DNA from: a bacterium
GTDB lineage: Bacteria > UBA8248
Length of the DNA stretch: 64,000 bases
Direction of reading: 5' to 3'
NCBI GenBank assembly: GCA_965207065.1
Contig: OZ242260.1
Span: forward strand, 1,482,551-1,546,550
Positions 6,839 to 64,000 of this stretch are shown piece after piece (position 1 is the stretch's first letter; every line of letters begins with the position of its first letter). A program made the position numbers and the translations under genes. The notes beneath the pieces are model-generated. The model had not been told where the DNA came from, ran no database searches, and worked only from the letters and a program-made list of their open reading frames with translations.

Positions 6839-9679
6839 TTAGAGTCCCAGCGTTGCGCAAAGCTCTTTCAGTTTTTCTTTGGGAGATTCGGGAATGTCGG
6901 ATTCGATGAGCTTGTCGATGAGTTCTTTGCCCTTATACCACGCATGAGGGGGCGATTCACACCCGCCCAAATGGAGCAACAGCTTCGCAACCACCTCTGG
7001 ATACCGCCGCCACAAATCGGAGTGGTTGATCTTATGAATTGACAAACCACGTTGCATCGGCTCTTTCGGCATACGAACTGCCAAGACAATTGCTTCGGGA
7101 AATACGTCGCTCTTCAAATACGGCAGCCAATTAAGCATTTGCTCGATTTCACCGACGTTGAGCGGCTTTGGTACACCCTTTAATCGGTTTTGCCAATAGC
7201 GCTTGAGCCAGCGTTTCCACAATGCTTGTTGTTTTTCTTCATTCATTCTACGAAGAAGTTCGTGTATTCGTGATGCGAAATGACTCTGGTCCTCTTCATC
7301 AGAATTATTAAAGAATTCGGGAATCCAGTCCTGGATAGGATCATCGACATAGTACACTAGCATGAGGGTATAGGCTTCGATGAAGCTTGCTCGTCGAGGT
7401 CCATAAAAAATTTCATTTTTGATCTGCGAAACCGCTTCAAGAAAAGGAGCCTTCATAAGCTCGGCCACGGGCGGGCTGAGGGACACATACCGAAAACCAT
7501 CCCATACCGCCTGATAATCACTTATATTGTCATTTGCCATGAATAAAGCCAGCAAATTTTCTCTTGTCCATTTTTCATCGACTGTCAGCAAAAAGGGAAG
7601 TTGACTTACGAGAACAGAGCGCCCCAATCTTCCAGCCAACGATTTCTCTTGAACGATACGAGACAACGCGTCGAGATACTCACCACGGAGAGCATCAGGC
7701 TTAGAGTCTTGCGCTTTTCGCCGCAGAGAAAGACTCCCCAGCCAGAACTGGGCGAGCACGCCGCCGGGATGAACAATGGCTTGATTGTGCCAATTAGAAG
7801 AATTATCGGATGATGCGTCGCGGTCGAGATGTTCCCACAACCTCATGGCAACCTCGTGGGCTTTGGGGAGTAACCTAGGCGTATAAGGCGCGCCGCCGCT
7901 CCTTACGAGCGTGTAAAGCACATCGGCAACTAAACGAGCGCATTCCTGGTACAGTTCACCTCTACTCAGTCGGCAAAGCACTTCGCGGTGCTCGTCCTCA
8001 GTCAGTTCGTTCGACCACGAGCGGAGCAAGGGTTCCCAAAGATCGGAATCCCACACATCCCGCTTGGCTAATTCGTCTACCAAACCGATGCCCCACTCGA
8101 AATTCTGATTTGCCGCATCCTCGACAGCACGAACGAGTCCTCTGCGGTCAGGTCCGTCAAATCTCGACAAATCCGTTTCTTGAAAGGACAATAACTTGTT
8201 CACCCATTCCTCGGCTGGCCGAGACAGAAGTTCCTCGGTGCTCCAAGGGCTTTGAGAGCCAACCGACATCCTATGCCAGGATAATAGATCCGGATGTTCA
8301 TACGGTTGGAAATCAGGATATTGCTCCGATACATCGTCTAGAGCTTCCTTGGCAAAAGGACAGTCCTGGTCGGCGCTATGAAGCCAGTGGAGCAGGCGAA
8401 AATGATGATAGGCAGTCGATTCCTCTTTGTCCTCGTCCTTTTTTATGGGCCAATGGAAAGCGTGCACAGCCTTGATAATGGCCTTTCGCCGTTTCGAGTC
8501 GGCTTCGGGATATGTTTGTTTCAAAAACACAAACACTTCATGATGCGCGGGAGTATCGTGCAAATCCATTCGAGTCAGAAACCAGTCGATTTTCTCGTTT
8601 GGGGTCAAATCTTCGCGTTTAAGCAATGTATGTACCGCCAATCGACGCAAAAGCGGCGCATCCAAATTGACGAGTTGGTCGCACCATCGCGCTGCCGCCT
8701 CCGGCCGATGTGACACCAGCCATTCCAGACAATCACGCGCCACATTTATCAGCATACTGATCGGTTCGTAGTATTCATCTTGTTCATGAGGTTCAATGGC
8801 GCTGCGGCAAAAACTCGACGGATCATAATCACGTGTCGCCGCCTGCCATGCGCAAAGCCTGCGGTGTTGCGCCGCCAAGTGTTCGACGACAGGCGCCAAT
8901 AAAAGCTCTGCCACACGATCTATATTCGGCTTCAACCCCTTTTCCCAAAGTTCATTTAGCTCATACAAACTATGCGTCGACGACAACTCCACATAGATGG
9001 GCGGGTGTTGGTCGTCCGTATTTTCACCAGAAGAGGTAAAACCCGGTTTGATTTCAAGATGACTCGTTGCGCAAGCCACGAAGATTTCAATGAGACTATT
9101 CACCAACCCCGCCTCAATGCAGCGCTCTCCCAAACATTGCAACAGGTGCTCGTCAAGATGTGCAGGAGCAGTGAAAAGCAACAACGAAACCCAACGCGAT
9201 AAGGTATCCGCATCCAGAGGCGGATCATTTTGCAATCCAATCTTCCAGCCTAATCGAGACCAGAACTCTGGGTGCACACGCATTCCGTGTCGGCCAATCA
9301 AGAGAAAAAGTGCATCGGCATTTTCATATACGAATTTCTGCGCCAGCCACCATGCCAATAGCTTATCTCGTTCGCAGATTTCACCGACGCAGAAGAGTCC
9401 GTCCAGATGCTTGCGCTCATCAAGCCAGTCGACCCATTCAGGTGATGAAGCGGCTTCGACGAAGAAACGCGTTTTCACTACATCCGACAGGGCTTCTTCA
9501 ATGAGATCCATTTCTTCCTCGTTAAGGGAAGGCCGCTTCTCCGCTAGGTCAGTTATCTCGCGCTGCCAGTCCAGGATGCCGCGCGCCGCATAATCGGCAA
9601 AACCCTTAACGCCGTTGTAGAGATTTTTTTGTCGGTCGACGGTGGATAGATAATCGGCTCGATGCCGAGCAGTCGCCAC
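6839..9679 (-). CDS. Large alpha-helical C-terminal region (DUF4020-like) of a DSR-like SIR2 defence protein; separated from the SIR2 ORF by a frameshift at an A7 tract
   Basis: 946-aa Trp-rich helical ORF with no P-loop; it would be fused to the SIR2 ORF by a -1 shift in caaaaaaatc (plus-strand ttttttt ~9624-9630); low-GC island. Confidence 0.55.
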   Translation of the reverse strand: MATARHRADYLSTVDRQKNLYNGVKGFADYAARGILDWQREITDLAEKRPSLNEEEMDLIEEALSDVVKTRFFVEAASSPEWVDWLDERKHLDGLFCVGEICERDKLLAWWLAQKFVYENADALFLLIGRHGMRVHPEFWSRLGWKIGLQNDPPLDADTLSRWVSLLLFTAPAHLDEHLLQCLGERCIEAGLVNSLIEIFVACATSHLEIKPGFTSSGENTDDQHPPIYVELSSTHSLYELNELWEKGLKPNIDRVAELLLAPVVEHLAAQHRRLCAWQAATRDYDPSSFCRSAIEPHEQDEYYEPISMLINVARDCLEWLVSHRPEAAARWCDQLVNLDAPLLRRLAVHTLLKREDLTPNEKIDWFLTRMDLHDTPAHHEVFVFLKQTYPEADSKRRKAIIKAVHAFHWPIKKDEDKEESTAYHHFRLLHWLHSADQDCPFAKEALDDVSEQYPDFQPYEHPDLLSWHRMSVGSQSPWSTEELLSRPAEEWVNKLLSFQETDLSRFDGPDRRGLVRAVEDAANQNFEWGIGLVDELAKRDVWDSDLWEPLLRSWSNELTEDEHREVLCRLSRGELYQECARLVADVLYTLVRSGGAPYTPRLLPKAHEVAMRLWEHLDRDASSDNSSNWHNQAIVHPGGVLAQFWLGSLSLRRKAQDSKPDALRGEYLDALSRIVQEKSLAGRLGRSVLVSQLPFLLTVDEKWTRENLLALFMANDNISDYQAVWDGFRYVSLSPPVAELMKAPFLEAVSQIKNEIFYGPRRASFIEAYTLMLVYYVDDPIQDWIPEFFNNSDEEDQSHFASRIHELLRRMNEEKQQALWKRWLKRYWQNRLKGVPKPLNVGEIEQMLNWLPYLKSDVFPEAIVLAVRMPKEPMQRGLSIHKINHSDLWRRYPEVVAKLLLHLGGCESPPHAWYKGKELIDKLIESDIPESPKEKLKELCATLGL

Positions 9680-10374
9680 CGCGCCGCATCGGTCTCATCC
9701 GTGAGCGCGAAACGCCCTCCTGTTTCATCCACCGGCAACGCCCGAGCCAGATAATTCATAATCGTATCGTTGTGGCTATAGCCGACGAAGAGAACGGTGA
9801 ACGAACGGAACAAGTCGAGGAGAAAACGCCGCGCCCATCCCTCAGTCAGATATGCGCGACCGAAATCCGCGTCCGTAAGCACCATGTCCACAGGATGGGT
9901 GACCGCGCCATGAACGTGAACTATGCCATTAAAGTCATGACCCAGAGGAAGCGCCGGTGCCCGAAACACTTCGAGCTTAGAGTCGAATATGTCCTCCGCC
10001 GCCTGTTCGAACAGCAGGTCGAAGTTAGTGGTGATAACCCGAATCGGTCGTGGCGCCGAGTAGAGTCTTAGCAGAGCACGATGCAAGTCGGTCGGTTTCG
10101 GATCATTTCTGAAAAGTTCTTCTTTCACCCGTTCATGTACGTTAACGCCCTTTTGCCGGAGTTTACCCAGAAAGCGGTCCTCAGTCTCATGCTCTCCTAG
10201 TTTTTCCCCGGTCCCTTGCGCAACTGCCAGTACCAGATCCCTGAAGTTCGGAAGATTCGCCGGTTCACCCATCGAAACACCCGCGCCCGCAAAGACGACC
10301 AAAGTCCCGTCACGCAAGGCGTCCAACAGTGGTCCGGGAAAATCAATGCCTGAAATCTTCACGCTTGTCTCCAA
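9553..10374 (-). CDS. SIR2-family (SIR2_2/ThsA-like) NADase domain protein, N-terminal part of a DSR-like defence protein
   Basis: LVVFAGAGVSMG (Rossmann), ITTNFD (catalytic Asn), VHVHG (catalytic His), FVGYSHND; 3' end overlaps the next ORF by 127 nt. Confidence 0.7.
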   Translation of the reverse strand: METSVKISGIDFPGPLLDALRDGTLVVFAGAGVSMGEPANLPNFRDLVLAVAQGTGEKLGEHETEDRFLGKLRQKGVNVHERVKEELFRNDPKPTDLHRALLRLYSAPRPIRVITTNFDLLFEQAAEDIFDSKLEVFRAPALPLGHDFNGIVHVHGAVTHPVDMVLTDADFGRAYLTEGWARRFLLDLFRSFTVLFVGYSHNDTIMNYLARALPVDETGGRFALTDETDAARWRLLGIEPIIYPPSTDKKISTTALRVLPIMRRAASWTGSAR

Positions 10375-10548
10375 TGACTACCGGAGAACTATCGGCGGAG
10401 TTCCATGCCAAGATACTATGAGGGAATCATCAGTCTCACGCCAGTGACTAGTGCGGCCAATAATGATGGCTTTACCTTCCTGAACCACTCGGACCGGGGA
10501 ATCCGAGTCACGAGTTGTCATTCTCTGAATTCGCACGATCTCACATTT

Positions 10549-10770
10549 CTTTCGCCGATTTACCAGGTAATTCGGGCGCGACTTCGGAGATAGTCCGGCT
10601 GATTTGCTCGATCTCTTCCTCTCGTCCGGCCTTCTCCATGTCGCGGATGATGGCCTGCGCGGTGAACATGGCAGAGCGCAGGAGGTGAATTTCCGCCTCC
10701 GTGCGCGGCCATTCGCGGCGTTTCAGACCATCCATTGTGAACTCGACCACGAGCCGGTTCGGTGAAATGA
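10549..10770 (-). repeat. Copy A of a repeated element encoding a MobC/RHH-like small protein (ORF 10541..10888)
   Basis: Shares the left end AATTCGGGCGCGACTTCGGAGATA... and ~75-85% identity with copies at 22182, 25095, 27420 and 62436; encodes ...NRLVVEFTMDGLKRREWPRTEAEIHLLRSAMFTAQAIIRDMEKAGREEEIEQISRTISEVAPELPG. Confidence 0.6.
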
Positions 10771-10875
10771 CACCCTGAACACAATAGGCAACTTCCGGTT
10801 TGAGCGCCAGATTGTGGCGTGGCGGGATCGTTCGTAATTTGCTCTTCGCCGCAAGGGATAATATTATTATGACAA

Positions 10876-11073: not shown

Positions 11074-11192
11074 CAATCAAGATTCCGGGCGCGTTGGCGC
11101 AAGCCCTGCGTATGCAGGCCAGAAGCAGCGGTCAGGCCATCGGGGACATCGTTGGACGGGCCCTGAGACGCTTTCTCCCGGATGTGGATTGA
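11070..11192 (+). CDS. Ribbon-helix-helix (Arc/CopG-like) protein, 41 aa
   Basis: MTIKIPGALAQALRMQARSSGQAIGDIVGRALRRFL fits a beta-strand/helix/helix RHH fold. Confidence 0.4.
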   Translation: MTIKIPGALAQALRMQARSSGQAIGDIVGRALRRFLPDVD

Positions 11193-11347
11193 AATGGCTG
11201 CGCGTCGCCCGGGTTCGCGGCCCGGCGTTGAACTTGATTATCGATTCGATCGCCTGTTCGCAGCCAGACTCCAGAATGCCTACGAGATACTGGTTCCTGA
11301 TCAGGTCCACAAAATCCCTGCCCGAAGACATGACACAGGAGACGAGG

Positions 11348-12585
11348 ATGAAAGTCGCAGCCCTTTATGCGTGGGTCTCGGGCGAGCAGCAGAGGGAGAG
11401 CAACACGATCGCCAGCCAGACCGAGGCGCTGGTCGAATACGCCAGGAACCACGGCTACAGCGTCGCGCCGGAGATGCTCGTCTAGGATGACGGCTACAGC
11501 GGCGCTGTTCTCGAGCGTCCGGGGCTGGAGCGGATCAGGGACCTCGCCGCGGAAGGGCGCTTCGATACATTGGTGGTTCATGCCCCGGACCGTTTGAGCC
11601 GCCGCTACGCCCACCAGATGCTGATCATCGAGGAGATGGCCCGCCAGGGCGTTGAGACCGTGTTCGTGAACGCGCCGTCGATGGAAACCCCGGAAGACAA
11701 CCTCCTCGTCCAGTTCCAGGGCATGATCGCGGAATACGAGCGCGCACAGATCCTGGAGCGTTCGCGTCGCGGCAAGCGTCATCGGGCGCAGCGTGGTGAA
11801 GTTGCGGTTCTCGGAGGCGCGCCTTATGGCTACCGCTACCACAAGAAAACCTTCGAGAGCGATGCCTATTATGAAGTGCTCGAACCTCAGGCGTCGGTGG
11901 TTCGCGAAGTCTATCACTACTATACTCATGACCACATGAGCATTGGCGAGATCACCCGCAAGCTCAACGAGCGGGCGGTGCCCACGTCCTCCGGTCGCGG
12001 ACGCTGGGAGCGTTCGGCCGTGTGGGCGATGCTGCGCAACCCGGCGTACAAGGGCAAGGCGTGTTTCGGCAAGACCCGCCAGATGCCGCGAAAAATCGTG
12101 ACCCGTCCCTTGCGATTGCGCGGCGGTGTGGCCGGCGCCACCACCGGCGGTCACGAGAAACCGCGTGAGGAATGGATCGAGATTCCAGTGCCGGCGATCG
12201 TCAGCGAGGAAACCTTCGCCCTGGCCGAAGAGCGGCTGGAGATGAACAAGGCCCGCGGGCCGCGCCGAACAAAGACGCCCAGCGTGGTGCAGGGGCTGGT
12301 CTCATGCGCCAAATGCGGCTATTCCCTGTATCGCACATCGACCCGGACGAGCGCCCGCACGATTTACTATTATCGCTGCCTGGGGCCCGATGCATGGCGG
12401 CATCTCAACGGGCCGGTATGCGACAATCGGCCGGTGCGCCAGGATCTACTTGACGAAGTTGTCTGGAGCGAAGTCGTCCGCCTTCTCGAGGATCCGAATC
12501 TGATCGGCGCCGAGATCGAGCGTCGGCTGGAGGCGGCCCGCGACTCCGACCCCTGTCGGCAGCGCGAGACCGACTTGCGGCGCCG
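11348..12585 (+). pseudogene. Large serine recombinase with in-frame TAG (11483-11485) and a degraded C-terminus
   Basis: Resolvase N-terminus MKVAALYAWVS...; LV*DDGYSGA (stop inside the conserved DDGYSG block); recombinase domain ...ITRKLNERAVPTSSGRGRWERSAVWAMLRNPAYKGK; zinc ribbon CAKCG...CLG; C-terminal coiled-coil replaced by junk. Confidence 0.7.
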
Positions 12586-12840
12586 GTGTTCGTCGTCGAG
12601 GGAGAGACGGCGGAGTTCAGGGTCAGGTTCCAGATACGGCCTTATTACCTTCGCTATTCGTACCGTACGGAAGATGAAACGGCGACGGGGGGTGAGGATT
12701 ACAGTCCTGTCGAGGGCACGGTGGAGTTTGCTCCGGGAGATACGTCCCGGACGGTTTCGGTAGCGACTCTTGCCGACGACGTTTCGGAGGGTCACGAGAC
12801 TTTCAGGTTGGTGTTTGATAATCTCAAGATCAAAAACAAG
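12586..12840 (+). pseudogene. Calx-beta domain gene fragment
   Basis: VFVVEGETAEFRVRF...GGEDYSPVEGTVEFAPGDTSRTVSVATLADDVSEGHETFRLVF matches the Calx-beta repeat; orphan fragment abutting the broken recombinase. Confidence 0.55.
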
Positions 12841-21999: not shown

Positions 22000-22181
22000 C
22001 ATTCGGTAATAAGGTGATGGAGGTTGGCCAAGCGAAGAGTTGCGGGATGTTTCTATTCTTGCGCTGCCGCTGATATTAGTGGTCTTACCCGGCTGAAACA
22101 CCTAGATCAGGAAAGCCGACTCACTCCTTGCTATTCTGAAAATCGAATGATGGGATGTCCGGTTTCGAAAGTTTCTCTGGC

Positions 22182-22300
22182 AATTCGGGCGCGACTTCGG
22201 AGATATTCCGGCTGATTTGCTCGATTTCTTCCTCGCGGCCGGCCTTCTCCATGTCGCGGATGATTGCCTGAGCGGTGAACATTGCCGAGCGCAACAGGTG
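22182..22300 (-). repeat. Copy B (truncated) of the RHH-element repeat
   Basis: 119 bp sharing the common end AATTCGGGCGCGACTTCGGAGATATTCCGGCTGATTTGCTCGAT...; diverges after ...GCAACAGGTG. Confidence 0.6.
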
Positions 22301-22989
22301 GGTGCGACAGGCTGCTAGGTTAAATTATTCAGATAATCGGAATAATGCCGTCGCCCGCTCGTAGCCATGGACGTCACGCTTACCGATATTGTCCTTATTC
22401 TCGCGCCACAACTTCACCCCTTTCAAGAGGGACATTGAGGCGCGTGCGCAGCACCTCTTGCGCCTGCAGTTCATTCTGTATTGTTCAGTTTCCCGCCGCT
22501 TCGTTACGGCAGTCGCATCATCAGCCGCTTCGTTCGCCAAGTGGAGATGCGGGTCGAAGCAGCGTTCTCTATGAGGCGTACTGGATCGCCCTAGAAGTCA
22601 CCCTAGTTGTAGGAATTAGTGAAACTCGTGGCCGTGATGCGTGCACGCTTAGACAATGACCGCAACGCTTCGATGTCCCTGGTGCCAAGCGGGCGATCAA
22701 TCCGTTTGTATTGGTATTCGCTCACGACTCGCCCTACCGGTATTAGGCCATTGCGCTATTCACCAAGATTCGGATTCTGCAAGAAAAATGATCCCCGTGT
22801 TTATGCTTGATGGCAACCGTGTGCGGCGCATACCCGGCGAAGACGGCAGGAATTCCTTTACCTTGCCTGCAAATTTACTTCCACCTTCTCCAATCGAGTT
22901 GGCCGGGACAAGTTTATTTGCCCCGGTTTTGTGGCCGAAACTCTTGTGGCCAGATTTACCCACCTGTTATTATCTCAATATAGATAATT

Positions 22990-24727: not shown

Positions 24728-25094
24728 TGTTGGTTCTCCCTGTCTATAAAGAAAAGATTCGGAGGCCCGCTCGGGCGCATCAACAGCGGCGAGATACCGG
24801 CACACTTGAACGGCGGCCCGGGTCTCTCGTCAGTGGCGGGCTTGATTGTTAAAGCGTTCGCATTTATGCTCGTAGCCATTCGGATATACTGAGGCGTTTT
24901 GGCCAAGGTTGAAGGGTCACTAATGTGCACAACATACCACAACCGGTTGCTGAGAAACCAAACTCTTTATCTTTACAAAAATGGTAGATATAGGCGGCTT
25001 TACTTGGCTGAAACTTATGAATTGTTACAGTCTGCCTGCTTCCCCTTTTCTCTGAACCTGCCTGCTTTTTGAATCTTTCCCTGATTTCCCCGGA

Positions 25095-25196
25095 AATTCC
25101 TGCGCGATTCGGGAGATAGTGCGGCTGATTTGCTCGATTTCCTCCTCGCGTCTGTCTTGTTCCATGTCGCGGTCTTGGGCTGCGAACATGGCCGAC
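25095..25196 (-). repeat. Copy C (truncated) of the RHH-element repeat
   Basis: ~100 bp homologous to the common end of copies A/B/D/E. Confidence 0.55.
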
Positions 25197-25439
25197 GAGG
25201 TGAACGATCCCTCCCGGCAATATCACACCATGACAAGGTGACGTCGTATATGGACGCGACCGAGCCCGGATGCGCGAAAGTTGCAATGAATCCGCTTATT
25301 GGTTGATTACATGTTGCGCAAGAGGGATCCTAGAGAAGATGGGAAAAATCATCCAATACAAGTAGTTTCAGCAGAATATGAGGATTTCACAACTGGTGGA
25401 AATTGTCGAATGTCTAGATTGATAAATTGAGCGAAATCT

Positions 25440-26990: not shown

Positions 26991-27419
26991 GCCCCTCCCG
27001 CGCTTGCATCACATGGTTTCCGTGCCAAGTAAGCTTGCACCATCATCGTGCGCGACGTGAAATTAATAGAGATTTCCCACGCGCTTCTCGTCAAATTAAA
27101 TTCTAAGGAATGGTTCAGAGGAATGCGCAAGACCAAGAGATGTTGCGGCTATTGCCTGCAAATCTCTGCTTCATCATTTTGTATCAACGCAGTTCGGGCC
27201 GATGCACAGGTCTCGGTAATCACATCGTGCCCCGAACAAAGTGTCAGTTTGAACATGTAAAGCAACGATATCTCGCGGATACGGTCTGTCGAATGTCTAT
27301 GTGGCGTGAATTTTCGACTTTCATAACCATTTCTCAGATGATCCATGATCGCGCAGTTTATGGATTGACGCCGCTCGAGTCTGTCCAACCCCGCATAATC
27401 TTCTGCCGATTTACGCTGC

Positions 27420-27962
27420 AATTCCGGCGCGGCTTCGGAGACATTTCTGTTGATTCGCTTGATTTTCTCTTTGCTTCGGGTACTTTCCATGTGCGGATGA
27501 TGACCTGTGCGGAGAACATCACAGAACACAACAGGTGAATTCCCGCCTCAGTTTGCGACCACTTGCGACGCTCGATAGCCTCCATTGCGAGTTCGACCAC
27601 GAGTCTGTTCGGCGATTTTTCTCGCCTTTCGGCTTCTTTTTCGAGGCGCCTCCACTGCTCGGGCTTCACCCTGACGTTCTTTTGTATTGTCTGAAGCCTC
27701 GGTTTTGCAGCTTCTTTATTGAAGGTTTTCACTCTAATTGATCGCAAAACGGGTCGGAAAATCCCGTTTCCTTGCATCGGGCTCGCTACATTTTGGGCGC
27801 ATGCATCCTCAAAAAGCCCCGGTCGATGAGATACCAAACGGATAGCCATCATAGCGCAGCGCACGCCCATCCGTATTCTCATAGCATACGTGCAGGAAAC
27901 ACCCTGATACCAGATGTATGCCATCAGCATAGTGCGCCGTGGAAAGGCGCCATTCCCTAGCG
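27420..27962 (-). repeat. Copy D of the RHH-element repeat (most complete ORF, 27358..27777), interrupted at its right end by a group II intron
   Basis: Encodes MQGNGIFRPVLRSIRVKTFNKEAAKPRLQTIQKNVRVKPEQWRRLEKEAERREKSPNRLVVELAMEAIERRKWSQTEAGIHLL...; hairpin AAACGGGtcggaaaatCCCGTTT; ~80% identity to copy E over ~540 bp. Confidence 0.6.
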
Positions 27963-28850
27963 GGTGCGAATCCCGCCCGGCAACTGTCGCTCCAGCCGGT
28001 AGCAATCGGGGCGGGTGATGGAGGCAACGACATGGCCTGAAGCACTCCGATGGAAAAGGGCCGCCACGGGCGGCTCAGCGACCATGCGGGCCGCAACGCG
28101 AGTGAACGCCGAGCAGGCCTCGAAAATGCATGATGCGAGTGCCGACCCGCCTATGCAACGGGGAAGGCTGTCACCGGCCGGGAAGCGAGCGACATGAGCA
28201 CCGGCCGGGTCTCGCCGGGGTAGTGGCGGCGGCACGCATGGAAGATGGGAATGGCAGCAACACGGGAAGCCCTGCCGGTGGAGCGCACACTCCAACCGGA
28301 ACCCCGCGAGGGGCAGGCCGGGCCGGCAGGGTGGCGGATGGGCTCGTAGTACCTGAGAGGCCGGGTAACGCCGGCGGAGGAAAGGAGCCCTGGTTCGGGA
28401 GCGATGCGGAAAGGGAGGAAGGGCATGACCACTGGCGAGAGCCTATCAGGGTCGGAAAAGGCTCGGAAACTCCAGACCGTGTTACATGCGAAAGCCAAGG
28501 AAGAACCCGGACGGCGCTTCCACGCGCTGATAGACAAGGTGTGGCGCGAAGACTTTCTGGCCGAAGCCTGGAGGCGGGTCCGCCGCAATCGCGGGGCCGC
28601 CGGGGTGGACGGAGAGACGTTCGCGGACATCGAGGCGTACGGCGTGGGACGCTGGCTCGGGGAACTGGCGCGGGAACTGAAGGATGGGGTATACGCACCG
28701 AAGCCTGTGCGACAAGTGCTCATCCCGAAGAAACAGCCCGGCAAGTTCCGGCCTCTGGGCATCCCCTGCATAAGGGACCGGGTGGCGCAGACGTCGGCCC
28801 TGCTCGTGCTTGAGCCGATATTCGAAGCGGACCTGCAACCGGAGCAGTAG
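27963..28850 (+). mobile_element. Group II intron (5' end GTGCG, domains I-III, truncated intron-encoded RT 28404..28850)
   Basis: Starts GGGTGCGAATCCCGCC...; IEP ...AAGVDGETFADIEAYGVGRWLGELARELKDGVYAPKPVRQVLIPKKQPGKFRPLGIPCIRDRVAQTSALLVLEPIFEADLQPEQ; cut off by the IS110 end at 28851. Confidence 0.7.
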
Positions 28851-52006: not shown

Positions 52007-52185
52007 CTTCCGGGACGTTTCGTGATGGCGTAGGTCGAAGGCATGAGGCCGTCGAAGCGCCGATCAGGCCGGGGTAGTTCCGCCGGTGTCTCGCGAGCAA
52101 ACTTCCGCCCGTCCGCGTCCACGTTTGCGGCATGCCTTCATTCTCGATAGCGTCCGTATTGCCGGTCAGGCCTGCAGGAGCACCT

Positions 52186-54216
52186 TCAAGCCGAAATTTC
52201 GCGCAACTGGCTTGCGATGCGCAGCCGAAGTTTCTTCGTAACCGACAATGCCGGGAACGGGTTGATTTTCAGCTTATAGTCTTTAGGCGGCAGCGCGAAC
52301 TCGAAATGATGCGCTATAACCAACACGGTAACCGTCAACTGCAAATGCATCCATGCCCATCCTGCGCACGAGTGGGTATCCAAGCCGTTCGGAGCGTATC
52401 CAGGACCTTGATGCTCATTGCGCGGCGGCAGGTAACGGTCGATATCGAATTCGTAGGGGTCTGCGAAGCAATCACTCATGTAGTGCGCCGCGGTTTGCAC
52501 AATGTACAACCGTTCCCTGAGCGGCAGTGAATAATTTTCCACGACGCAAGAACTTGCGACATCGCGAAGATGTATGCAGATAATCGGATACATTCGTAAA
52601 CATTCCATGAGAAAACGTCTGGTAACGTCATACTTGTCCGGCGAAAACTCGTCTTTATCCGGGTCGCCGCCATCGAAAAGCGCGTTTGCCTCTTCACGAA
52701 TTCTCGCCGTAATTTCCGGCTGTCTGGCCATTTCATAAAGCACGAATCCCAACATGTCCCCTAGATAAATACTTTGAAACACAGGCGTTACCGCCAGCAT
52801 GAACAGCAGGTTTTGCTCCGGGATAAACTGCGGGTCGCTGTTGTGCAGAGAAATCAGTTCGTCCGCCAGATCCTCGGCAACACCTGCGCGGTGAATGGGT
52901 ATATGGTTCTGCTCGATGCGCCGCAGGAGTTTCTCGTAAAGCTGAAAGCGATACTTCATGCCGGGAGTGCGCGTCAGGAATTTCGGCAGAAAATCCGCAA
53001 CGTAGCAAAGGATTGCTCTTTCATTCCATTTGACCAGATCTTCAAATACATCTTGCGAATCCGTACTAATAAGAACCTGAGACATTTGAAAATTGGTCAT
53101 CAACCGGGTATCTCGCTGTACTTCTAGTCTCGAGCCCGCCTGCCACTCTTGACTTATCATGAATTGGCGGCTCAGTCGGAACATATCATCCAGCCTCTCA
53201 TAGAAACTGGCTTTCGAGTAAATTCTCCCCATCAGCTTGCGCAATCGAAAATGATCGGCTCCGTCCATCGACGGCAGTAAATTGTTTGCGCCGCAAACCA
53301 TCTCCATCTTGCGAAAAAAATTGCCGGAAGTTAAAAACCTTCGGGAATTTCGACGCACCCAATGATTGATATCAGGTCCAGCCAAAAATGTTCGCGGCTC
53401 TTGAAACGGCGCACAGATTTGAAAGACCGGACCATATCGGTCGGCCAGATTTCCGAACAGCGCCGGCAGGTTGCCGTCCCACAAATGCCGATTTGCAAGC
53501 AAGCTCTTTAGGGGAATCTTCGGAATTGGTTTTGTGAGGGGTGAGTGTTGCAATGCAGGCGTAATGGCGACTTGCTTGACGGCAGTGGAAATGACCCGGT
53601 TGAGCAGTTCCGTTTTACAAACCAGGTCAATTCGCTTTTTCTCTTCCTCATCCAGCTCGAAAATAAATTTAATGATATCGCACGCATCCAAAAGACCGAT
53701 TATCAGGGAATCCCTCGGGTCCGGAATGATATCCGTGAAAATCACCTCCTCGATTCTCGATTTGATGTACCTTCCGACGCTCTCGCTTCGGGGATAACGT
53801 TCCAATTCCGCATGCCAGGCGCAGTGGTTCGTTGTGTAAAACTCACCATCATGGCGCGTCAGAATTTCGGACTTGAGCAAGTGCTTCAGCGTAGCATCGA
53901 TGATGTCTTCCGAATGAACTGCAAGCCGCTCAATCCAGTATCGCGGTTCTTCCAGATTGGGATGGGATGCGATCTCTTCCAGGCATAAATCCAGTGCCAG
54001 GTCGCCTGTTTTGGTTGAATCCAGGAGAAAAAGCGATTCTTCATCTGTATCAACGCGTGATTTCAAGGAGAGATCGGCCAGAACAGCGCCGATGGTGGCG
54101 CAGTTCAACGTCCAGCCCTCCACTTGGTGGAAATAACCGTTCTGCTCGTTGAGAATCGTCAGGATGAATTCTTGCGGGATATTCAACGATTGCTTCGTTA
54201 TCATGTTACACTCCAT
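52186..54216 (-). CDS. GPP34 (GOLPH3-like) domain fused to a cytochrome P450 domain
   Basis: N-terminus ...LNCATIGAVLADLSLKSRV...; C-terminus ExxR (ECLRMYP), PERF-like DRYL, haem loop NGLDTHSCAGWAWMHLQL; the in-window start is probably MECNM/MITKQ (the upstream extension is junk). Confidence 0.6.
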   Translation of the reverse strand: MECNMITKQSLNIPQEFILTILNEQNGYFHQVEGWTLNCATIGAVLADLSLKSRVDTDEESLFLLDSTKTGDLALDLCLEEIASHPNLEEPRYWIERLAVHSEDIIDATLKHLLKSEILTRHDGEFYTTNHCAWHAELERYPRSESVGRYIKSRIEEVIFTDIIPDPRDSLIIGLLDACDIIKFIFELDEEEKKRIDLVCKTELLNRVISTAVKQVAITPALQHSPLTKPIPKIPLKSLLANRHLWDGNLPALFGNLADRYGPVFQICAPFQEPRTFLAGPDINHWVRRNSRRFLTSGNFFRKMEMVCGANNLLPSMDGADHFRLRKLMGRIYSKASFYERLDDMFRLSRQFMISQEWQAGSRLEVQRDTRLMTNFQMSQVLISTDSQDVFEDLVKWNERAILCYVADFLPKFLTRTPGMKYRFQLYEKLLRRIEQNHIPIHRAGVAEDLADELISLHNSDPQFIPEQNLLFMLAVTPVFQSIYLGDMLGFVLYEMARQPEITARIREEANALFDGGDPDKDEFSPDKYDVTRRFLMECLRMYPIICIHLRDVASSCVVENYSLPLRERLYIVQTAAHYMSDCFADPYEFDIDRYLPPRNEHQGPGYAPNGLDTHSCAGWAWMHLQLTVTVLVIAHHFEFALPPKDYKLKINPFPALSVTKKLRLRIASQLREISA

Positions 54217-54284
54217 TCCTCGTGATTTGATTCTTTCTCGTGATGCCGATTCCTGCGGCTTCCGGTCCCCTTTTTTCCATCCCT

Positions 54285-57200
54285 CTACGAGATCTTCTTT
54301 GCCGTTCCGGTTCCGCCGTCCGGCTTCATGTCCACAGCCGCCACTCTTCCAGCCATGACGCGTTGACTTCTCGCCGGTAATATCATGCTCTTTCGTCGCT
54401 TCCGGCGACGCTGCTCGTAGAGACCAAGCGCGTGCAGGGGGAAATACTGGCGGTAGAGCACGTAATCCAGGAGCGCCGTCCGAAAAAAAACGCCGGGCAT
54501 GTCCTGCTTGGGCCAAGTCCCGTCTGCTTCCTGCGTATTAAGCAGGAAGCCAGCGCCCCGGGAAATCGCGGCCCAGTCTGTTTCGTCCGCCTTGAGGAGT
54601 GCTATCAGCGCCCACGCGGTCTGTATGACCTGGCTTTCCTGATGCGGGACGTAGCAACCGCTTAGGCAGCCGCTGTGGTGTTCGCCCCATCCCCCGTCTG
54701 GCTGCTGGCGCTCCAGCAGCCAGCGGCAAGACGCGCGCAGCGCCGGATCGCTTGGACCGGCCCGGTCCGAAACAAGGCCCCAGATGCCGAAAAGGGTGCC
54801 GTAGATGTACTGGACCCCCCATACGCCGCGCCAACTGCCGTCAGCCATCTGGTTCCGTCGCAACCACAAGGCGCCCCGGGCGATGGAGTCGGCAACCACT
54901 GACCTGTCGCCAATTTCAGGAAATCGATCCCGGCAGACAGCCAGCGCCGCGATACAAGACGCGGTACATTCGACAAAAGAATGCTCGGTCATCGATTCGC
55001 CGAACATCTCTGCAGGATTCAAGCGCTCCAGATCAATTGCCGAGCGCCTGGCCTCATAACTGCCGAAGCCGCCGTCGGGGTTCTGGCTTCGCAACATAAA
55101 GCCAATCGCTTCGCTGAGCACGGACGAGTCCGTGTCGTCTCCGTGGGCGGCGACGAGTCCAAGCACCGCCTGCGCCGTGCAGTCACTCACCGGCCAGCCA
55201 TGCCACCCACCGGCGAAGCACCAGCCGCCTTTGGGGTCAGCGCGGTAGGCTTCACGAAACCGTTCAAAGCTGATCTTGATCTGTTCGCCGAGCAGAAAAT
55301 CGGCGCCGCGCCGGAGCGCATCCCGAACACGGTCCGTCTCAGGCATGGTAGCCAGAGCCTGCAGCGCGAACCCGGTATCCCACGAAGCGCTTCTTGCTCC
55401 GGTGACCCGCAAGCCGTCGTCTTCGTCTTCCCATATCCAGGAATCCATTTTCGATAGCGCCCTTCGGCAATCGGTATCGTCCGGATCGTGCAGCCACAGC
55501 GCCAGAATGTTGAGAATGCCGCTGACTGGAGAGATGCTCGTATGGCTGGTGGTCTGCAGTTCCCATCTGATCTGCCCGAGAATTGCATCCATGCACCGTG
55601 TGCGCAGGTGTTTGCTGTGGAACCGCTCGACCAGCCGTGCAAATCTATATCCGAGCCTGAGCCAGACGGACGGCCTTGCAAAAAGATCGGCATCCCGAAG
55701 CCGGTTCCTAGCGGCGAGAAAATCGGCCCTGGCAAAACCTTGCGGATAAAGCTCTTCCCGCAACGCAGCGATAACTGGTGTGACGGGCGCCTGGTACCGG
55801 CGGGCATAAATCGACGCCATCGCCATATAGATGAGCCGTGTATGGCAGTACCAGTTGGAGGGATGCAGCGGTATCTTCCGCGGCAGGCTCCACAATTCCG
55901 GCAGAACAGCGTTCACGCCGTTCCAATCATAAAGATTAAGGAGCGCCAGCCAGAATTTTCCCCAGCTCGGAATGCCGAGAATCCCCTCGGCCTGAATGAA
56001 CCGCCGGGCCGGCGCGATCAGGGGGTCATCCGGCTCTACACCGAGCAGCCGCGCCGCGACATAAACGAGGGCGGTGACGAACAGATGGGGCGACGAATGC
56101 TCGTGCAGGCCCCATGAACCGTCTTGGAGACGGGTCCTCTCAAACGAGTGCAGCACCCGGCGCCGCTTTCCCGGATCGAGCGGCTGGCCGATGATGTGGT
56201 GGAGCAGTACGTATTGCGCCGTGAGCATGGGACACCAGACCATCTCGCCTTCCCAGTCGCCGTCCTCTCTCTGCAGTTGCACGAGGCATTGGGCGGCGCT
56301 TTCCAGCGCCGGACCGGCATCGGGCGAATCGACCTCTCCGGCGCGGGCGGGCCGCTCCGATTCGGTTTTCGAAGGGATGGTATAGGGGAATGCCCGTCGT
56401 AGGTGCTCTCGCGCTTTCGCGCTTTCCTCCCTTCCTTCCCTGGCCGCCTCCCTCAACTGGCGGATGCCGAGCAGCAACCACCAAAGGCGAGCAGCCAACG
56501 CGCGAAAGTTCACCAATATCCGACGCCATAGAAACCTGCGGATGGAGAAGGTTGTCTCCCGGCTCATTGCCCGCGCGACAGTTTCGCAAAAGGAGAAAAC
56601 CGTCATTGGCATGGACAACTCTTGGCAGGCAAGTATCCGCATGGTCCGGTCCCGATACCCCGAATTCGCTCGCCAGCCCTGGTAAACGGCCTTTCTGAGC
56701 ATAACCGATTCGGTGCGGTAATCGGTCAACACCTCATAAAGCCCCATGGCAAGGAACTCGGGAATACGGGTCGCCTGGAACCGCTTTGCGGTGAATTGCT
56801 GGAAGTCCTCGCTTTCGGAGAGCGCCAGCGCATCGCCGAAGCCGAGAGTCATGCCGACTGCCGTCATGGGATGATAGTGTCCGGCCGCATCGCCGATAAG
56901 CACCCGGTGCGGGTTCCCGTACGTGACACGCGGTCTCAACTGGTTGGCGGCGGCATAGAATCGCCTGACGTGCAGCGCTTCGACGAAGGCCGGCCCGAGA
57001 TTTCCTGGAAGCAGCCTGCCATAGGATTCAGACAAGAAACTTATCCGGTCCTTGGAATTCCAACAATCCAATGGGACATCCAGGTTGACCCGGACGGAGC
57101 CGTTCGCAAGTCCGTAAATGAAAATTGGACCCGGCCCACCCAGAACCAGATGGCCGTATCCTTCAAACAGCAGGTCGGCGTCGTGTAACGTCACCCCGAG

Positions 57201-57718
57201 CATCCGCGAACAGAGCATCGGGTCCATGGAATATCCCAAGGATCTGCGCACGATCGAAGCGCGGCCGTCGGCGCCGATAATTCGGTCGACATTTATGGCG
57301 CATTCCAAGCCATTTCTCGAGAAGGTAATCCGTTCGTCTTCAACGACATTGACCCGCGCGTGGGAAATGAAATCGACATTGGCCTCGTTCTCAATGACCT
57401 CGCGGAGGCTTGAAACGAGCAGCGCGTGGTCGCATACCAGACCCCGTGAACCGTCTGGATAAGGAAGCAGGATCGGGTCGGAGTCGTCGTCGGGCAGCAC
57501 CACGAAACCGACGCCCGACTTGCTGCCGGACAGCGTGTCGACATCAATCCCGATGTCACGCAACAACTTCACTCCCGGCGGATGCAACCATTCGCCTGCA
57601 AGGCGTTTAGACGCTTTCGGATTCGCTTCGAGCAGGGCCACCTTAACGCCCTTGCGCGCAAGGACAATTGCGCATACGCTTCCCACCGGTCCCGCGCCGA
57701 TAATGGCGGCATCATACT
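54285..57718 (-). CDS. Bifunctional squalene monooxygenase (FAD) - oxidosqualene cyclase fusion protein
   Basis: N-terminal domain: YDAAIIGAGPVGSV (FAD GxGxxG), GEWLHPPG (cf. GELLQPGG), IIGADGRASIVRRSL, IGDAAGHYHPMTAVGMTLGFGD (squalene-epoxidase GD motif). C-terminal domain: QW-type repeats, GWPVSDCTAQAV (OSC catalytic VxDCTAE motif), GGWGEH. Single frame with no stop; the likely start is GTG at ~57718 (the track Met at 57839 adds an Arg/Ser-rich junk extension). Confidence 0.7.
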
Positions 57719-57729
57719 TCGGCACCGAG

Positions 57730-59016
57730 TCAGCGCTCCTCAAAGGGCGCTGAGTACAGCGCGGCGGCGGTTGTGAAGGGCAGGTCGCCGTCCTGGATCG
57801 AGAGCAGGAACGTTTCCGGACCCTCGATCTCGTCATCATGCTCGGTGGGAATAGAGAAGCGGTACCGGGGCCACCCCGCCGGGATAGTCAAATTGTAGGG
57901 GCCGCCCGTGTAGTCCCCTTGTTCCGACGCGGTCTGGTCCGTGTTCACCAATGTAACAGTTGTATTCGTGAACCGAGGCCACGAGAACATCAGTTTCCAT
58001 CTCGAGCACCTCGCCTTTGGCCACCGAGTTGGCGTTGTCCAGATACTCAACACGCTTGTCAGGTCGCTGTGCGTCACGGTCTGCTGGCCGGCGTGCCCAC
58101 GGGCAGGCCGCAGGCGACGTTGGTGTTGCTTGCCCTCGCTCCCGAAAACGACGTTCAGCGTCCCTTCGTAGGCGTTGCCTTCTTCTAGGTTCGCCACTGG
58201 GGTGAGCATGATGAGCGCCTACTGCACCACGTTCGTGGCGAGGCCGGTGAAGGTCAGAGTCAGGTCACTTCCCGTACCGGACACCGTAACGCTGGTTCCG
58301 GTGGTGGCGTAGGAGTAGTCCGAGGTCACGTGATTGGTGTTGCGGACGGTGGTCGAGTTAGTGCCTATGCCGATGGAGAAGTGCGCCACGTCGTCCGTCA
58401 GCAGCCGCTGGCCGAGCTTGACCCTGACCTGCGCCGTGTCGGTCGCGTCGCCTTCGGTCATCCACGTATCCATCGCCTCGAAGGAGACCGTGACCTGCGC
58501 GGTGGCCTCGTCGGCAAAACCCGCCGACAGCAGGACAGGCAACAGCAAGGACAGGAAGAGACGGTGCGGGGAAAAGGTGGTCCGTTTCCAGGGCGTGCGT
58601 CCCGGGGCGCCGATTCTTTTGCGGAGTCCGGAAGCCGCGCCGCGCGGACCGGAGCGGCGGGAAAACTCAGGCGGTGAGGCTGGAAGGCAAAGGCAGCGCC
58701 GCCATGCGGTAACGCTCATGGCCGACGTTCGGTTCGGTTCGGTTCGGTTCGGTTCGGTTCGGTTCGGTTCGGTTCGGTTCGGTTCGGTTCGGTTCGGTTC
58801 GGAGAACATGGTGAAGAACGCTCTCGTCCGGCTTGTCAAGCCCTGATATGAAGCTTTTCTGCTATTGAAGAAGGCCCGAAAAACCAAGGGGAATGTTGCA
58901 AGGCGGCGCGCATCTTCGGTCTCCTTAAAGAATGGGAATAATTCAGCAAAGTTAACAAAGATTTTAGAGATTAACTTCATCATTGAGTTCATCGAATCTT
59001 GATCCTGAATGGTCAA
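57730..59016 (-). pseudogene. Secreted Calx-beta domain protein with in-frame stop (58219-58221), preceded in frame by a (TEPNR)n repeat
   Basis: Signal peptide ...HRLFLSLLLPVLLSAGFADEATAQ, then Calx-beta-like VTVSFEAMDTW...; the second half MLTPVANLEEG...GEGDYTGGPYNLTIPAG... is in the same frame after a stop. Confidence 0.45.
58726..58802. repeat. Pentanucleotide microsatellite (GGTTC)14-15, i.e. (GAACC)n on the coding strand
   Basis: Read directly; lies between an upstream ATG (MFSEPNRT...) and the signal peptide of the Calx-beta gene. Confidence 0.9.
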
Positions 59017-59334
59017 ATTAAGCGTTTATGTTTGCAAATGCTTCTTTCATATCTTGAGCCGTTATCCGGTTCCTTGCATAGATTCATACTATTCATTTTT
59101 GTATTGGCGTCAGCCGGAACGGATCGGGCCGAATGCCGCTTAACCTATGAGTTTTGGAGTGGGCTCCTGCGTATTCACTCGAGAATGAGGGCTTGTATTT
59201 CGAAAGCGATCCCATTATCGGGTCAACCCGCAAACCATGTTGCATTGAATACCTTGGCTATGTCAACGAAATTTGTCAAGAAAAATTGATTTGAAATATT
59301 TGGCATCATGAGCGCCCAGAAGCGATGGCGCCGG

Positions 59335-59871
59335 CTACGCGGCTTCCGTCAATGACGCGGACGCTGCTCCCCAAGTCCTCATGCCTGCGGATGCGCCCGG
59401 CGTCTGCGGCACGCACCAGAAGCAACTGGCGGAACGCGATGTGCCCCGACGTAAAGACGACGGCCTCCTCCCAGCCGCATCGAGAGTTCGCGAATCGAGG
59501 ATCGTGATGCCCCCGCCCACCATGTCGAACTGCGATCCGGCCGCGCGAAGCCAGATGTTCTTCCAAGACGCGATGCCGCGGCGGGAAAAAGAGAGGCCCG
59601 CGCCCTTCATCGCTTCGAGGGCGCTCAACAGATTCGACTCGTAGCCTAGATGGACGTGGGAGCCGGCGGAATTTGGAGCGGGGTCGGCGCTGTAGCTCAC
59701 CGGTTTGAAGAAGGCATAGTATCCGAATATCAGAGGACGTCCATCACTCGTGCAAGCCACCGAAGGTGTGGCGAACGCGCCGACAGCGAGAACGAGACAA
59801 ACCATCGAGGCGCAGGCGGCGAGTGATGTCCGTCCGGGCAGGCGGGAAAACAGCGCAAGCATGCCTTTCAT
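59335..59871 (-). pseudogene. Periplasmic solute-binding protein family 3 (PBPb-like) N-terminal part, apparently frameshifted or truncated
   Basis: Signal peptide; ...LIFGYYAFFKPVSYSADPAPNSAGSHVHLGYESNLLSALEAMKGAGLSFSRRGIASWKNIWLRAAGSQFDMVGGGITILDSR. Confidence 0.4.
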
Positions 59872-62310: not shown

Positions 62311-62435
62311 ATTCATCGGTACGCATCGTTTACGGGTGAACCGTTATCGAGGCGGCTCTGCATAATGGCGCGCATTGTCCGGACGCCGATGCCGTAAGAG
62401 TTTTTTATAAAACAATTCATTCCAATAATCCCGGC

Positions 62436-62935
62436 AATTCGGGCGCGACTTCTGAGATATTCCGGTTGATTTGTACGATTTCCTCCTCTCGTCCGTCCCG
62501 ATCCATTTTGCGTATGATGGCCTGCGCCGCGAACATCGCGGAGCGAAGCAGGTGGATTTCCGCCTCGGTTCGCGGCCATTCGCGACGCTCCAGGGCCTCC
62601 ATCGCGAGTTCGACCACGAGTCTGTCGGGTGAATTTTCCCGCCATTCGGCTTCTTTTCGAGGCGCTTCCACTGATCTGATTTCACCATGACGTTGATTTG
62701 TATCGTCCGGAGCACCGGTTTTGCTGCTTCTTCATGAAATTTTTCACCCTGATCGATCGCAAAACGGGCCGGAAAAATCCCGTTTTCTGCATCGGGTGCA
62801 CTACATTTTGAGCGCGTGCACCTTCAAATTGCCCCGGCCCATGAGATACCAGACTGGTATCCATCATAGCGCAGCGCAGGCCTGCTCGATACCAATTCAG
62901 TATCTCCGCAGGGGAAAGGCCATTCGCTGCTACCG
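62436..62935 (-). repeat. Copy E of the RHH-element repeat (ORF broken by frameshifts)
   Basis: Same AATTCGGGCGCGACTTC end; ...SPDRLVVELAMEALERREWPRTEAEIHLLRSAMFAAQAIIRKMDRDGREEEIVQINRNISEVAPELPG; hairpin AAAACGGGccggaaaaatCCCGTTTT. Confidence 0.6.
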
Positions 62936-63388
62936 CCGGTCACTCGATCCATCCATATGAGGGGCAAGCGGAGCGCAGGCATTCGCATCATGGGCGACCC
63001 GCCACCTGAAAGATATCAGGATGGTATTACATTTTCCGGCGCGACGGGAGCACTCAGGAATACGAATTTTCACGGCATACTGCACGCAGTCGTATCACTG
63101 TAACACCAGCATCAGCGATGCGTCGGGTGTACTGAAAGAAACGCCGAAGGGCGGCTAGCGCAGGGATTCTTAGGAACGCGAGTCGAGGGGAATCATGCCG
63201 GTGAGAATGGCGAGCGGGAGCCGTCGCGGCGATTGAGCGCGAGGAGCAATGCGGGGAGTTGTTCCTGCGGCAAGACCAGTGGAGTCTTCATCGTTGCCGG
63301 CGCAAGCGGCGCGAGCGTTGGTCGACGAGACGCAAAGGGCCGCGCCGCCGCCGGGCGGGGTGGCGACGCGACCCGAGGTGTTTTCGCG

Positions 63389-64000
63389 TCAGGCTGCAAC
63401 GCGCTGGACGGGGATACCGAGGGTTTTAGCTTTGTCGACGAGGTTGTCGGTGATGCCCGAACCCGGGAACGCGATCACGCCCTTGGGCAGGAGTGCGAGG
63501 AGTTCGTCGTTCCTGCGGAAGGGAGCGGCCCTGCCGTGGGCGTCCCAATCCGGTTTGCAGACGACCTGGTGGACGCCGTTCCGCTCGGCCCATCCCGCCG
63601 CTATCTTCTCCGCACCGGGGCCGCCGCCGTGGACGAGAACGACGTCGGCGTACTTGGCCTTGACCTTGTCGAGGTGGCCGATGATTTTGCCCGCATCGCT
63701 CGCCTCCTTGCCTCCCGCGACGGCGACGAGGGTTCCCTGGGGCAAGTGGGCCGTGTTCTCGCGGTCCTTTCTGGCTCGCTGGAAGTCGCGCGCCTCGATG
63801 ACAGCGGAGGTGAGCTTGCCGGTCTGGCTGACGTGGGAACCTCGCCTCGGCCGCCATACCTCGCCGGTCTCGATGCGGTAGGCTTCTGCTGCCGTGTCCC
63901 TGAGTCCCTCGAAGGCGTCCCTGCGCTCCGTGAGGTTGTTGGCCCGGTCGGTCTTGAGTTCGAGTTCACGCGACCTGATCTCGGAGCCGTCCTGCTCACG
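63389..64000 (-). CDS. DUF2493/SLOG-like protein (partial, runs off the window end)
   Basis: ...LVAVAGGKEASDAGKIIGHLDKVKAKYADVVLVHGGGPGAEKIAAGWAERNGV...; the frame is open beyond 63745 to the window edge. Confidence 0.45.
   Translation of the reverse strand, partial: REQDGSEIRSRELELKTDRANNLTERRDAFEGLRDTAAEAYRIETGEVWRPRRGSHVSQTGKLTSAVIEARDFQRARKDRENTAHLPQGTLVAVAGGKEASDAGKIIGHLDKVKAKYADVVLVHGGGPGAEKIAAGWAERNGVHQVVCKPDWDAHGRAAPFRRNDELLALLPKGVIAFPGSGITDNLVDKAKTLGIPVQRVAA

Follow-up and report, generated by a model that had tools for sequence, protein, structure and literature searches.

Five broken copies of a putative ribbon-helix-helix regulator gene, probably left by serially accreted mobile elements, in a 64-kb stretch of a UBA8248 bacterium

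A stretch of 64,000 nt from a bacterium (GTDB lineage Bacteria; UBA8248; assembly GCA_965207065.1, contig OZ242260.1, positions 1,482,551 to 1,546,550), referred to here as the window, contains repeated segments derived from a small gene that putatively encodes a ribbon-helix-helix (RHH) protein. Five related segments on the same strand were obtained by repeat finding and a five-way alignment. A nucleotide profile of 48 homologous loci, in which the start codon is profile position 301, was run with nhmmer on the window. The profile located exactly five copies, all on the minus strand (E-values 1e-28 to 1e-115), in agreement with a sequence-only reading of the same DNA that had counted five or more. 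The copies, named A to E, were placed at 10507-10771 (A, E-value 1.2e-82, profile positions 379-643), 22164-22301 (B, 2.9e-48, positions 462-599), 25061-25195 (C, 1.4e-28, positions 475-615), 27358-27931 (D, positions 69-642) and 62414-63040 (E, positions 2-603). The same five copies were recovered by tblastn, which matched amino acids (aa) 28-101 in A (89% identity), 55-100 in B (93%), approximately 53-101 in C (63%), 2-101 in D and 1-96 in E. Copies D and E were each matched in two frames, and the two pieces of E covered aa 1-30 and 22-96.

All five copies are defective. A, B and C are truncated at the 5' end, and D and E carry frameshifts and damaged ribosome-binding sites. As determined by nhmmer and tblastn, copy A (10507..10771, minus strand) is a 3' fragment with an open frame that runs from codon 28 to the stop codon at 10541-10543 and lacks codons 1-27. 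Copy B (22142..22303, minus strand) is a 3' fragment with an open frame that retains codons 55-100 and lacks codons 1-54. Copy C (25041..25204, minus strand) extends from about codon 53/58 to the end, lacks the codons before that point (about 1-53/58), contains a 6-nt deletion and is the most diverged of the five. Copy D (27358..27931, minus strand; nhmmer, tblastn in two frames and alignments) is a full-length RHH pseudogene, an orphan, that retains 232 nt of leader. It has no start codon, as AGG replaces ATG at 27697-27699; its ribosome-binding site is mutated and 1 nt is deleted near 27494. Copy E (62389..63041, minus strand; nhmmer, tblastn and alignment to D and the family consensus) is a full-length RHH pseudogene with a promoter/operator leader. 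Its GTG start lies at 62713-62715, the frame is shifted by the loss of 1 nt from an A-run near 62652-62656, and the ribosome-binding site carries mutations.

The surroundings of the copies differ. Approximately 420 nt from the 5' breakpoint of copy A begins a large serine recombinase pseudogene in two frames (11189..12763, plus strand), in which the Pfam domains Resolvase, Recombinase and Zn_ribbon_recom match 11570-12763 and the N-terminal part lies in the other frame at 11189-11485. The sequence-only reading had placed recombinase genes beside both A and E; this holds for A, with the frameshift just described, and fails for E. The neighbour of E is a YAcAr/SLOG gene, of which the C-terminal 203 codons lie in the window before the gene runs off its end (63392..64000, minus strand; Pfam PF10686, E=4.6e-22). 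This gene is 94% identical over 203 aa to its homologue at L001 (homologous loci in other genomes carry numbers of this kind), has no frameshift and appears from its sequence to be intact. Copy E is the only one in the window still joined to the conserved module described below. An integrase beside each copy had been suggested as a check; the recombinase pseudogene was found at A and no recombinase at B, C or D. The breakpoint of B adjoins unknown sequence and a fragment of an insertion sequence (IS) present in seven other loci. An open reading frame (ORF) at 21634-21999 was considered as a recombinase C-terminus and discarded, having neither a Pfam hit nor similarity to the recombinases of the window. 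An IS256-type transposase fragment (25466-26235) lies approximately 270 nt upstream of C. The leader of D ends at −232, where it is cut by a group II intron whose 5' part (27932..28849, plus strand; Rfam RF02003 at 27958-28101, 86.7 bits) abuts the copy at approximately 27932, as had been noticed before. The intron is 94% identical to a copy at L028 and 87% identical to one at L043. A common homing site for the introns in D, L028 and L043 was rejected, since both positions and orientations differ.

In the gene model, translation begins with MVQTIQKN... and is preceded by an AGGAG ribosome-binding site. Longer ORFs are products of upstream read-through, and the length of approximately 140 aa given before does not hold. 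What stands of the former description is a repeated protein-coding unit with a putative RHH core; its length is 101-113 aa. A query protein reconstructed from D and A had 670 homologues in public data, mostly 101-113 aa long, with best hits of 76-86% identity; none of them is named. Divergence at the three codon positions was about 0.11/0.08/0.33 among 23 loci, which is the signature expected of a protein under purifying selection; values of 0.09/0.06/0.31, also obtained, fit the same pattern.

The Pfam NikA-like family (PF21983) was matched by 24 of 25 members (best E=1.2e-5), all under the gathering threshold of 27 bits; the best whole-protein score was 21.6 bits and the reconstructed window protein scored 15.8 bits. 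HicB of Pfam was matched by 21 of the 25. MobC, which the sequence-only reading had put forward, was absent from the Pfam hits up to an E-value of 10 and from the scan of 25 members, and NCBIfam gave no hit. In a profile search of PDB the top match was the Arc repressor over residues 2-44, at a weak E-value of 0.09. An AlphaFold2 monomer model of low confidence (mean pLDDT 66) showed helices at 13-25 and 30-43, two more helices and a disordered tail at 95-113, and a Foldseek search of this model against PDB returned no significant match. Conservation within the protein is highest in the C-terminal domain (aa 47-95), for which no relative is known. Taken together, these matches are weakly consistent with an RHH DNA-binding regulator of the Arc/MetJ superfamily.

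The gene is preceded by approximately 685 nt of conserved non-coding leader with repeats and palindromes. An inverted-repeat search of copy E revealed two operator-like palindromes, GATACCAGACTGGTATC and GATACCAATTCAGTATC (62843..62906, no strand assigned), which flank a TATGAT box. In most loci they are kept as two occurrences of TACCA-N3/4-TGGTA. Three palindrome types co-vary with three beta-strand sequences of the RHH protein, one for each of three lineages: TACCA-N3/4-TGGTA goes with QTIQKNIRV, TGCGTCGCAAAnnCGACGCA with KTINKHIRV and GCAGTCAATCTGACTGC with QTVTRTIRV. From this co-variation we infer that the RHH protein may repress its own promoter through the palindromes. A conserved tail of approximately 100 bp, which had been noted in the longer copies, is this operator-like region. 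The hairpin noted with it was confirmed in D and E: read from the sequence, AAAACGGG-N10-CCCGTTTT lies in the 5' untranslated region of E (62761..62786, no strand assigned), and its equivalent in D is at 27746-27769. D and E have approximately 230 nt of upstream sequence in common besides the hairpin. The AAAACGGG hairpin is restricted to the lineage of D, E, L027 and L032. A conserved RNA hairpin in the leader was therefore rejected as lineage-specific, no consensus structure having been found across the family.

The protein resembles known RHH regulators (Arc, MetJ, CopG and NikA of R64, PF21983) in its putative N-terminal strand-helix-helix of approximately 45 residues, in a C-terminal helical extension of the sort many RHH proteins have, and in the palindromes upstream of its own gene that co-vary with strand residues. 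It differs from NikA-like proteins in scoring below the Pfam cut-off, in lacking an identifiable adjoining origin of transfer (oriT) or relaxase at most loci, where variable cargo follows the gene, and in having no homologue among the 72,556 plasmids searched. A type II antitoxin of the RHH type does not fit either, as the downstream gene differs at nearly every locus and is often on the opposite strand. A mosaic lineage (L035, L039, L040 and L041; gene at 10001-10297) shows 43-52% identity over aa 1-46 and 86-94% over aa 47-95. The junction lies at about codon 46, and the N-terminal DNA-binding half has been replaced together with its operator.

The feature that first drew attention to the repeat is its common end. 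All copies had been said to begin with one identical sequence, a 24-mer at the 3' end of the gene. The 24-mer occurs four times at up to three mismatches, against 0.00 occurrences expected in shuffles, and a chance origin is thereby excluded. It is exact in A and B only, with one mismatch in E, three in D and five in C. The pattern of a shared 3' end and ragged 5' ends is real; the 24-mer is not the end of the repeat, as homology runs past it. In A, C and D it continues for approximately 20-60 nt to the stop codon, and a subset of copies that includes A, B, C, L023 and L014 shares a further block past the stop, which brings the extension in A, B and C to approximately 130 nt. Of 987 pairwise homologies, 93% stop at gene nt 270-309. 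Column conservation stands at approximately 0.9 as far as nt 284, drops to 0.6-0.7 in the 18 nt that follow (encoding GKSAKD) and is 0.3-0.5 in the remaining tail, which is the region that the AlphaFold2 model shows as disordered. A razor-sharp recombination border at the 24-mer was rejected on two grounds, the stepwise fall of conservation and the approximately 130 nt more that A, B and C share.

Comparison of the unit borders revealed no shared short repeats apart from TTCAGCCRRGTAARRCC. This motif lies in the extension of A (10468-10484), B (22081-22097) and C (24996-25012), 83-85 nt past the 24-mer boundary, and at 10365-10381 in L023; the distance is fixed at approximately 85 nt. Its possible roles include that of a terminator region or of some other type of site. 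Third-position (synonymous) divergence of the RHH gene was 0.31, against 0.22 for the neighbouring YAcAr gene in the same nine loci. Because the synonymous divergence exceeds that of YAcAr, the 3' half of the RHH gene shows no extra constraint at the nucleotide level, and a cis-acting attachment (att) or oriT site in this half was rejected. The fixed end is the natural, graded end of a conserved gene at the border between a backbone and its cargo.

This backbone became visible when the loci were compared across genomes. We surveyed one genome per species and took 10-kb flanks at each locus; ORFs were clustered over 56 loci. Copies of the gene were found at 61 loci in metagenome-assembled genomes (MAGs). 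In their record titles these are labelled Nitrospinota, Poribacteria, Alphaproteobacteria or Gammaproteobacteria, and many come from sponge projects. Single genomes carry up to eight copies (OZ241875.1), and CBDBEV010000001.1 carries seven. Gene calls around four copies gave a common order of SSB, DUF4326, YAcAr/SLOG and RHH, with a large helicase, a primase (DUF7146/Toprim_3) or an AlkB-like gene sometimes before SSB. After RHH the genes are unrelated: AIPR and AbiE in one case; an SMC-like ATPase, PIN_4, Mrr and a methyltransferase in another; DUF2971 and a cytosine methylase in a third. All ORF clusters present in at least 24 loci are upstream of RHH, and the most recurrent downstream cluster, an IS256-type transposase, is present in no more than 12 of the 56. 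A TrwC relaxase gene occurs in 13 of 56 loci, 6-9 kb upstream and on the other strand. The conserved block thus includes conjugation-associated genes, is present in several copies per genome and has spread horizontally, as is found for the backbones of integrative conjugative or mobilisable elements.

RHH is the last gene of this conserved, conjugation-associated backbone, and variable, mostly defence cargo starts after it. The link to integrative or mobile DNA that had been drawn for the repeat is borne out in this form, the gene being part of the backbone. The repeat is essentially the conserved end of a multi-copy mobile element, a possibility the sequence-only reading had named as evidence against itself. 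Relative to the gene, the element body is on the upstream side, which is to the right in the window and not to the left as had been envisaged. tRNA genes as integration sites were considered and discarded. Four were predicted, two of them inside long ORFs of approximately 1,100-1,200 aa and probably false; the genes after the L057 prediction look ordinary and include no backbone, and at L037 no integrase stands beside the prediction. A literature search on DUF4326 and DUF2493 returned nothing relevant.

The cargo in the window can be followed downstream of copy A. Directly after it lies Dsr1 (6839..10374, minus strand), split into two overlapping ORFs, 9553-10374 and 6839-9679. PADLOC matched the N-terminal part at E=8.9e-41 and the C-terminal part at 9.9e-32, and Pfam SIR2_2 was also matched. 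Dsr1 is followed by an AbiEi/AbiEii pair at 4361-6136 (PADLOC AbiEii 1.3e-77 and AbiEi 1.6e-62; Pfam AbiEii).

The relationships among the copies indicate how they came together. The window copies are 73-91% identical to one another, and each of them matches copies from other genomes just as closely as it matches its neighbours; B, for example, is 92% identical to L021. Since mutual identity is no higher than identity to other genomes, the window copies are separate arrivals and not local duplications. Downstream of B, the segment 16909-22034 is 96.5-97% identical to the block downstream of the RHH copy L056 in the MAG CBDBZU010000004.1. A block with sterol-type genes at 50136-59327 is approximately 97% identical to the same MAG, where it lies 0.85 kb downstream of the RHH copy L023. 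The RHH copies beside these two flanks in CBDBZU010000004.1 are only 75-76% identical to B and E. The fact that 97% identical flanks adjoin RHH copies of 75-76% identity indicates that the flank persists while the backbone end turns over. The four other copies of the window lie downstream of E and in the same direction, and the extra copies in L021, L035, L039 and L051 are placed likewise, which makes eight of eight in one orientation.

The sterol-type gene cluster itself spans 49667-57839. It includes an ORF of 1184 aa that encodes a squalene epoxidase-oxidosqualene cyclase fusion (54285-57839), one ORF with GPP34 and cytochrome P450 domains (52186-54516) and an MMPL/sterol-sensing-domain protein (49667-52006). 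At the junction of the element-proximal DNA and the sterol block, a 273-nt segment (59354-59627) is inverted relative to L023 (10901-11174) and is bounded by inverted repeats of approximately 18 nt; it may be a small invertible segment.

The five repeats are broken remnants of one putative RHH regulator gene at the edge of an element backbone, and we consider it probable that they were produced by serial accretion and subsequent decay. Related elements would have arrived repeatedly at this locus in one orientation. Their backbones would later have been lost through deletions and insertions of other mobile DNA, and the cargo, mostly defence genes, would have been kept. What remained of each older element would be the 3' part of its last backbone gene together with its cargo. 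At least four or five separate arrivals would then be represented by remains in the window, and only the rightmost, E, keeps its backbone; the ragged 5' ends would reflect later damage, and the shared end would be the border between backbone and cargo. The order of these events and selection for retention of the cargo are inferred. Comparable damage to the gene or its leader is found at other loci, where it is due to an IS110-family element in L055, group II introns in L028 and L043, and a 1.8-kb insertion in seven loci.

Several points weigh against accretion followed by decay. The three truncated copies A, B and C keep open reading frames, and no 5' halves that match them were found within the window. 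Without exception, the seven or eight truncations are located within the 300-nt gene, and none lies in the leader of approximately 700 nt or in YAcAr. Four or five breakpoints lie at nt 134-143, a clustering that random deletion does not predict: the L039 fragment starts at 141, L055 breaks at about 142, L060 and L062 end at 143, and the breakpoint of L057 is at 134. The mosaic junction at about codon 46 coincides with this cluster. A site-directed process may contribute to the clustering. No complete two-ended element was seen in the 10-kb flanks, and RHH may mark either a terminus or an internal cargo hotspot. The assignment of the protein to the RHH class is putative: the profile hits on which it is based are sub-threshold, and the fold search was uninformative.

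The IS110-family transposase gene in L055 (578-1813) is located inside an RHH gene, between nt 26 and approximately 142. Targets of this family are selected by sequence, which could make the conserved RHH gene a favoured insertion site.

The alternative that survives best is site-specific integration into the 3' half of the RHH gene, which would leave or bring a partial 3' copy at each event and so build a one-way array. We regard it as unlikely. The single orientation of the copies in the window, L021 and L039 would follow from it, as would breakpoints that cluster at nt 134-175 and nearly coincide in L039, L055 and L060/L062. A tyrosine-integrase pseudogene ends approximately 125 nt before the L039 fragment, the serine recombinase pseudogene abuts copy A, 97% identical flanks stand beside different RHH lineages in two genomes, and the mosaic lineage L035/L039/L040/L041 has its junction near codon 46. 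However, in the 56 loci there is no recombinase family that is found repeatedly beside the copies or downstream of them, and at B, C and D none was found. The segment between the copies in L021 consists only of a type I restriction-modification system and an ATPase. Fragments of the wrong kind also occur: D and the second copies of L035 and L051 include 5' parts or promoters, L057, L060 and L062 are 5'-only fragments, and fragment starts are spread from nt 79 to 218. The absence of extra constraint at synonymous sites and the graded border are as described above, and the copies, at 73-91% identity, have no identical core beyond coding conservation. The att-site remnants suggested by the sequence-only reading thus find weak support at best: one-way arrays are present, and a recurrent recombinase and an identical core are not.

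A related idea, to which we give a still lower probability and which we put forward as speculation, is that the 3' half of the RHH gene together with the approximately 130 bp beyond it is a docking site for one-way serial insertion of defence-cargo modules or sister elements. The 3' fragments would then be insertion scars, and the breakpoints at nt 134-143 and the codon-46 junction would mark the recombination point. If it were true, a cargo-acquisition platform would be common to mobile elements across several sponge-symbiont phyla.

It is very unlikely that the leader and the RHH gene form an oriT with a NikA/TrwA-like relaxosome accessory protein, the copies being orphan transfer origins whose fixed end is produced by relaxase-mediated recombination or by partial transfer from a fixed nick. 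The shared end is on the 3' side of the gene and the leader on its 5' side, so that nicking in the leader could not produce this end. A nick-site motif was not identified. In favour of an oriT are the approximately 685 conserved non-coding nucleotides with repeats and palindromes and the consistent, though sub-threshold, NikA-like matches. The TrwC relaxase found 6-9 kb upstream in 13 of 56 loci is not adjacent, and at most loci it is absent within 10 kb. The neighbouring SSB, primase, DUF4326 and YAcAr genes resemble the leading region of a plasmid; the plasmid search found no homologue, and the border is graded.

Retro-element-style 5' truncation, in which reverse transcription would start from a fixed 3' end, had also been suggested from the common 3' end and ragged 5' ends, and fragments of group II intron reverse transcriptase do occur in the window, but it can be dismissed, as the copies belong to different lineages (73-91%) with no single master copy, their 3' ends differ by up to 45 profile positions (599-643), their flanks have no A-tail, target duplication or shared flank words, and intact members of the family are ordinary chromosomal genes with their own promoter and ribosome-binding site.

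Accretion followed by decay, the reading we prefer, has precedents. Integrative elements that accumulate in tandem and then decay to cis-mobilisable remnants are known, examples being the integrative and conjugative elements ICESt1 and ICESt3 and the cis-mobilisable elements (CIMEs) of Streptococcus thermophilus. There, as in the window, related elements are stacked one way, the older ones are reduced to end fragments with cargo, and different lineages stand beside the same flank in related strains. The present case differs in that no att repeats or shared integrase were identified, and the remnant is a gene fragment of 135-265 nt with no short att core. The partial 3' copies of tRNA genes at island borders are similar in being direct-orientation partial copies that contain the 3' end of a gene. 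They are identical or nearly identical to their target and flanked by an integrase, whereas the copies studied here are 73-91% identical, are inconsistently accompanied by recombinases and include full-length and 5' fragments too. The switch from backbone to variable defence cargo after one gene is generally known from the cargo hotspots of SXT/R391 elements and from defence islands. The cargo of this kind found here includes Dsr1, AbiE, restriction-modification systems, PIN and AIPR. Unlike in the SXT/R391 hotspots, nothing downstream recurs within 10 kb, and a resumption of the backbone beyond the cargo was not seen.

The kind of object in the window is known, an ordinary graveyard of mobile DNA; the element family appears to be undescribed. 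A puzzling repeat is explained as the remnants of a gene, and most of the 64 kb is a pile-up of mobile and defence DNA beside an element backbone. The RHH gene would serve as a marker for a successful, defence-carrying element family shared by sponge-associated bacteria that are labelled as different phyla. A map of this family could reveal the routes by which defence genes, and perhaps metabolic ones, travel within sponge microbiomes.

Three further structures were observed in the window. A group II intron at 15683-17582 contains an extra 889 nt (16021-16908) compared with the 88-97% identical copy at L056. A further intron-like 5' domain inside the insert (Rfam, 16045-16228) suggests an intron nested in an intron. 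At 33475-36956, three tyrosine recombinase genes lie in a row on the minus strand (33642-34730, 34649-36571 and 35563-36804). The trio, bounded by 114-nt inverted repeats that are 99% complementary, has the look of a 'recombinase in trio' element and interrupts an IS256-type transposase gene (32482-33420 and 36905-37657) that is continuous in other loci. Finally, inverted repeats of approximately 0.8 kb (28877-29660 and 41092-41882, 80-92% complementary) bracket 11.4 kb of DNA that contains a serine recombinase of 691 aa, the interrupted IS256, an NgoFVII-type restriction-modification pair and an IS1595 transposase. The bracketing repeat has no Pfam match and recurs in L039.

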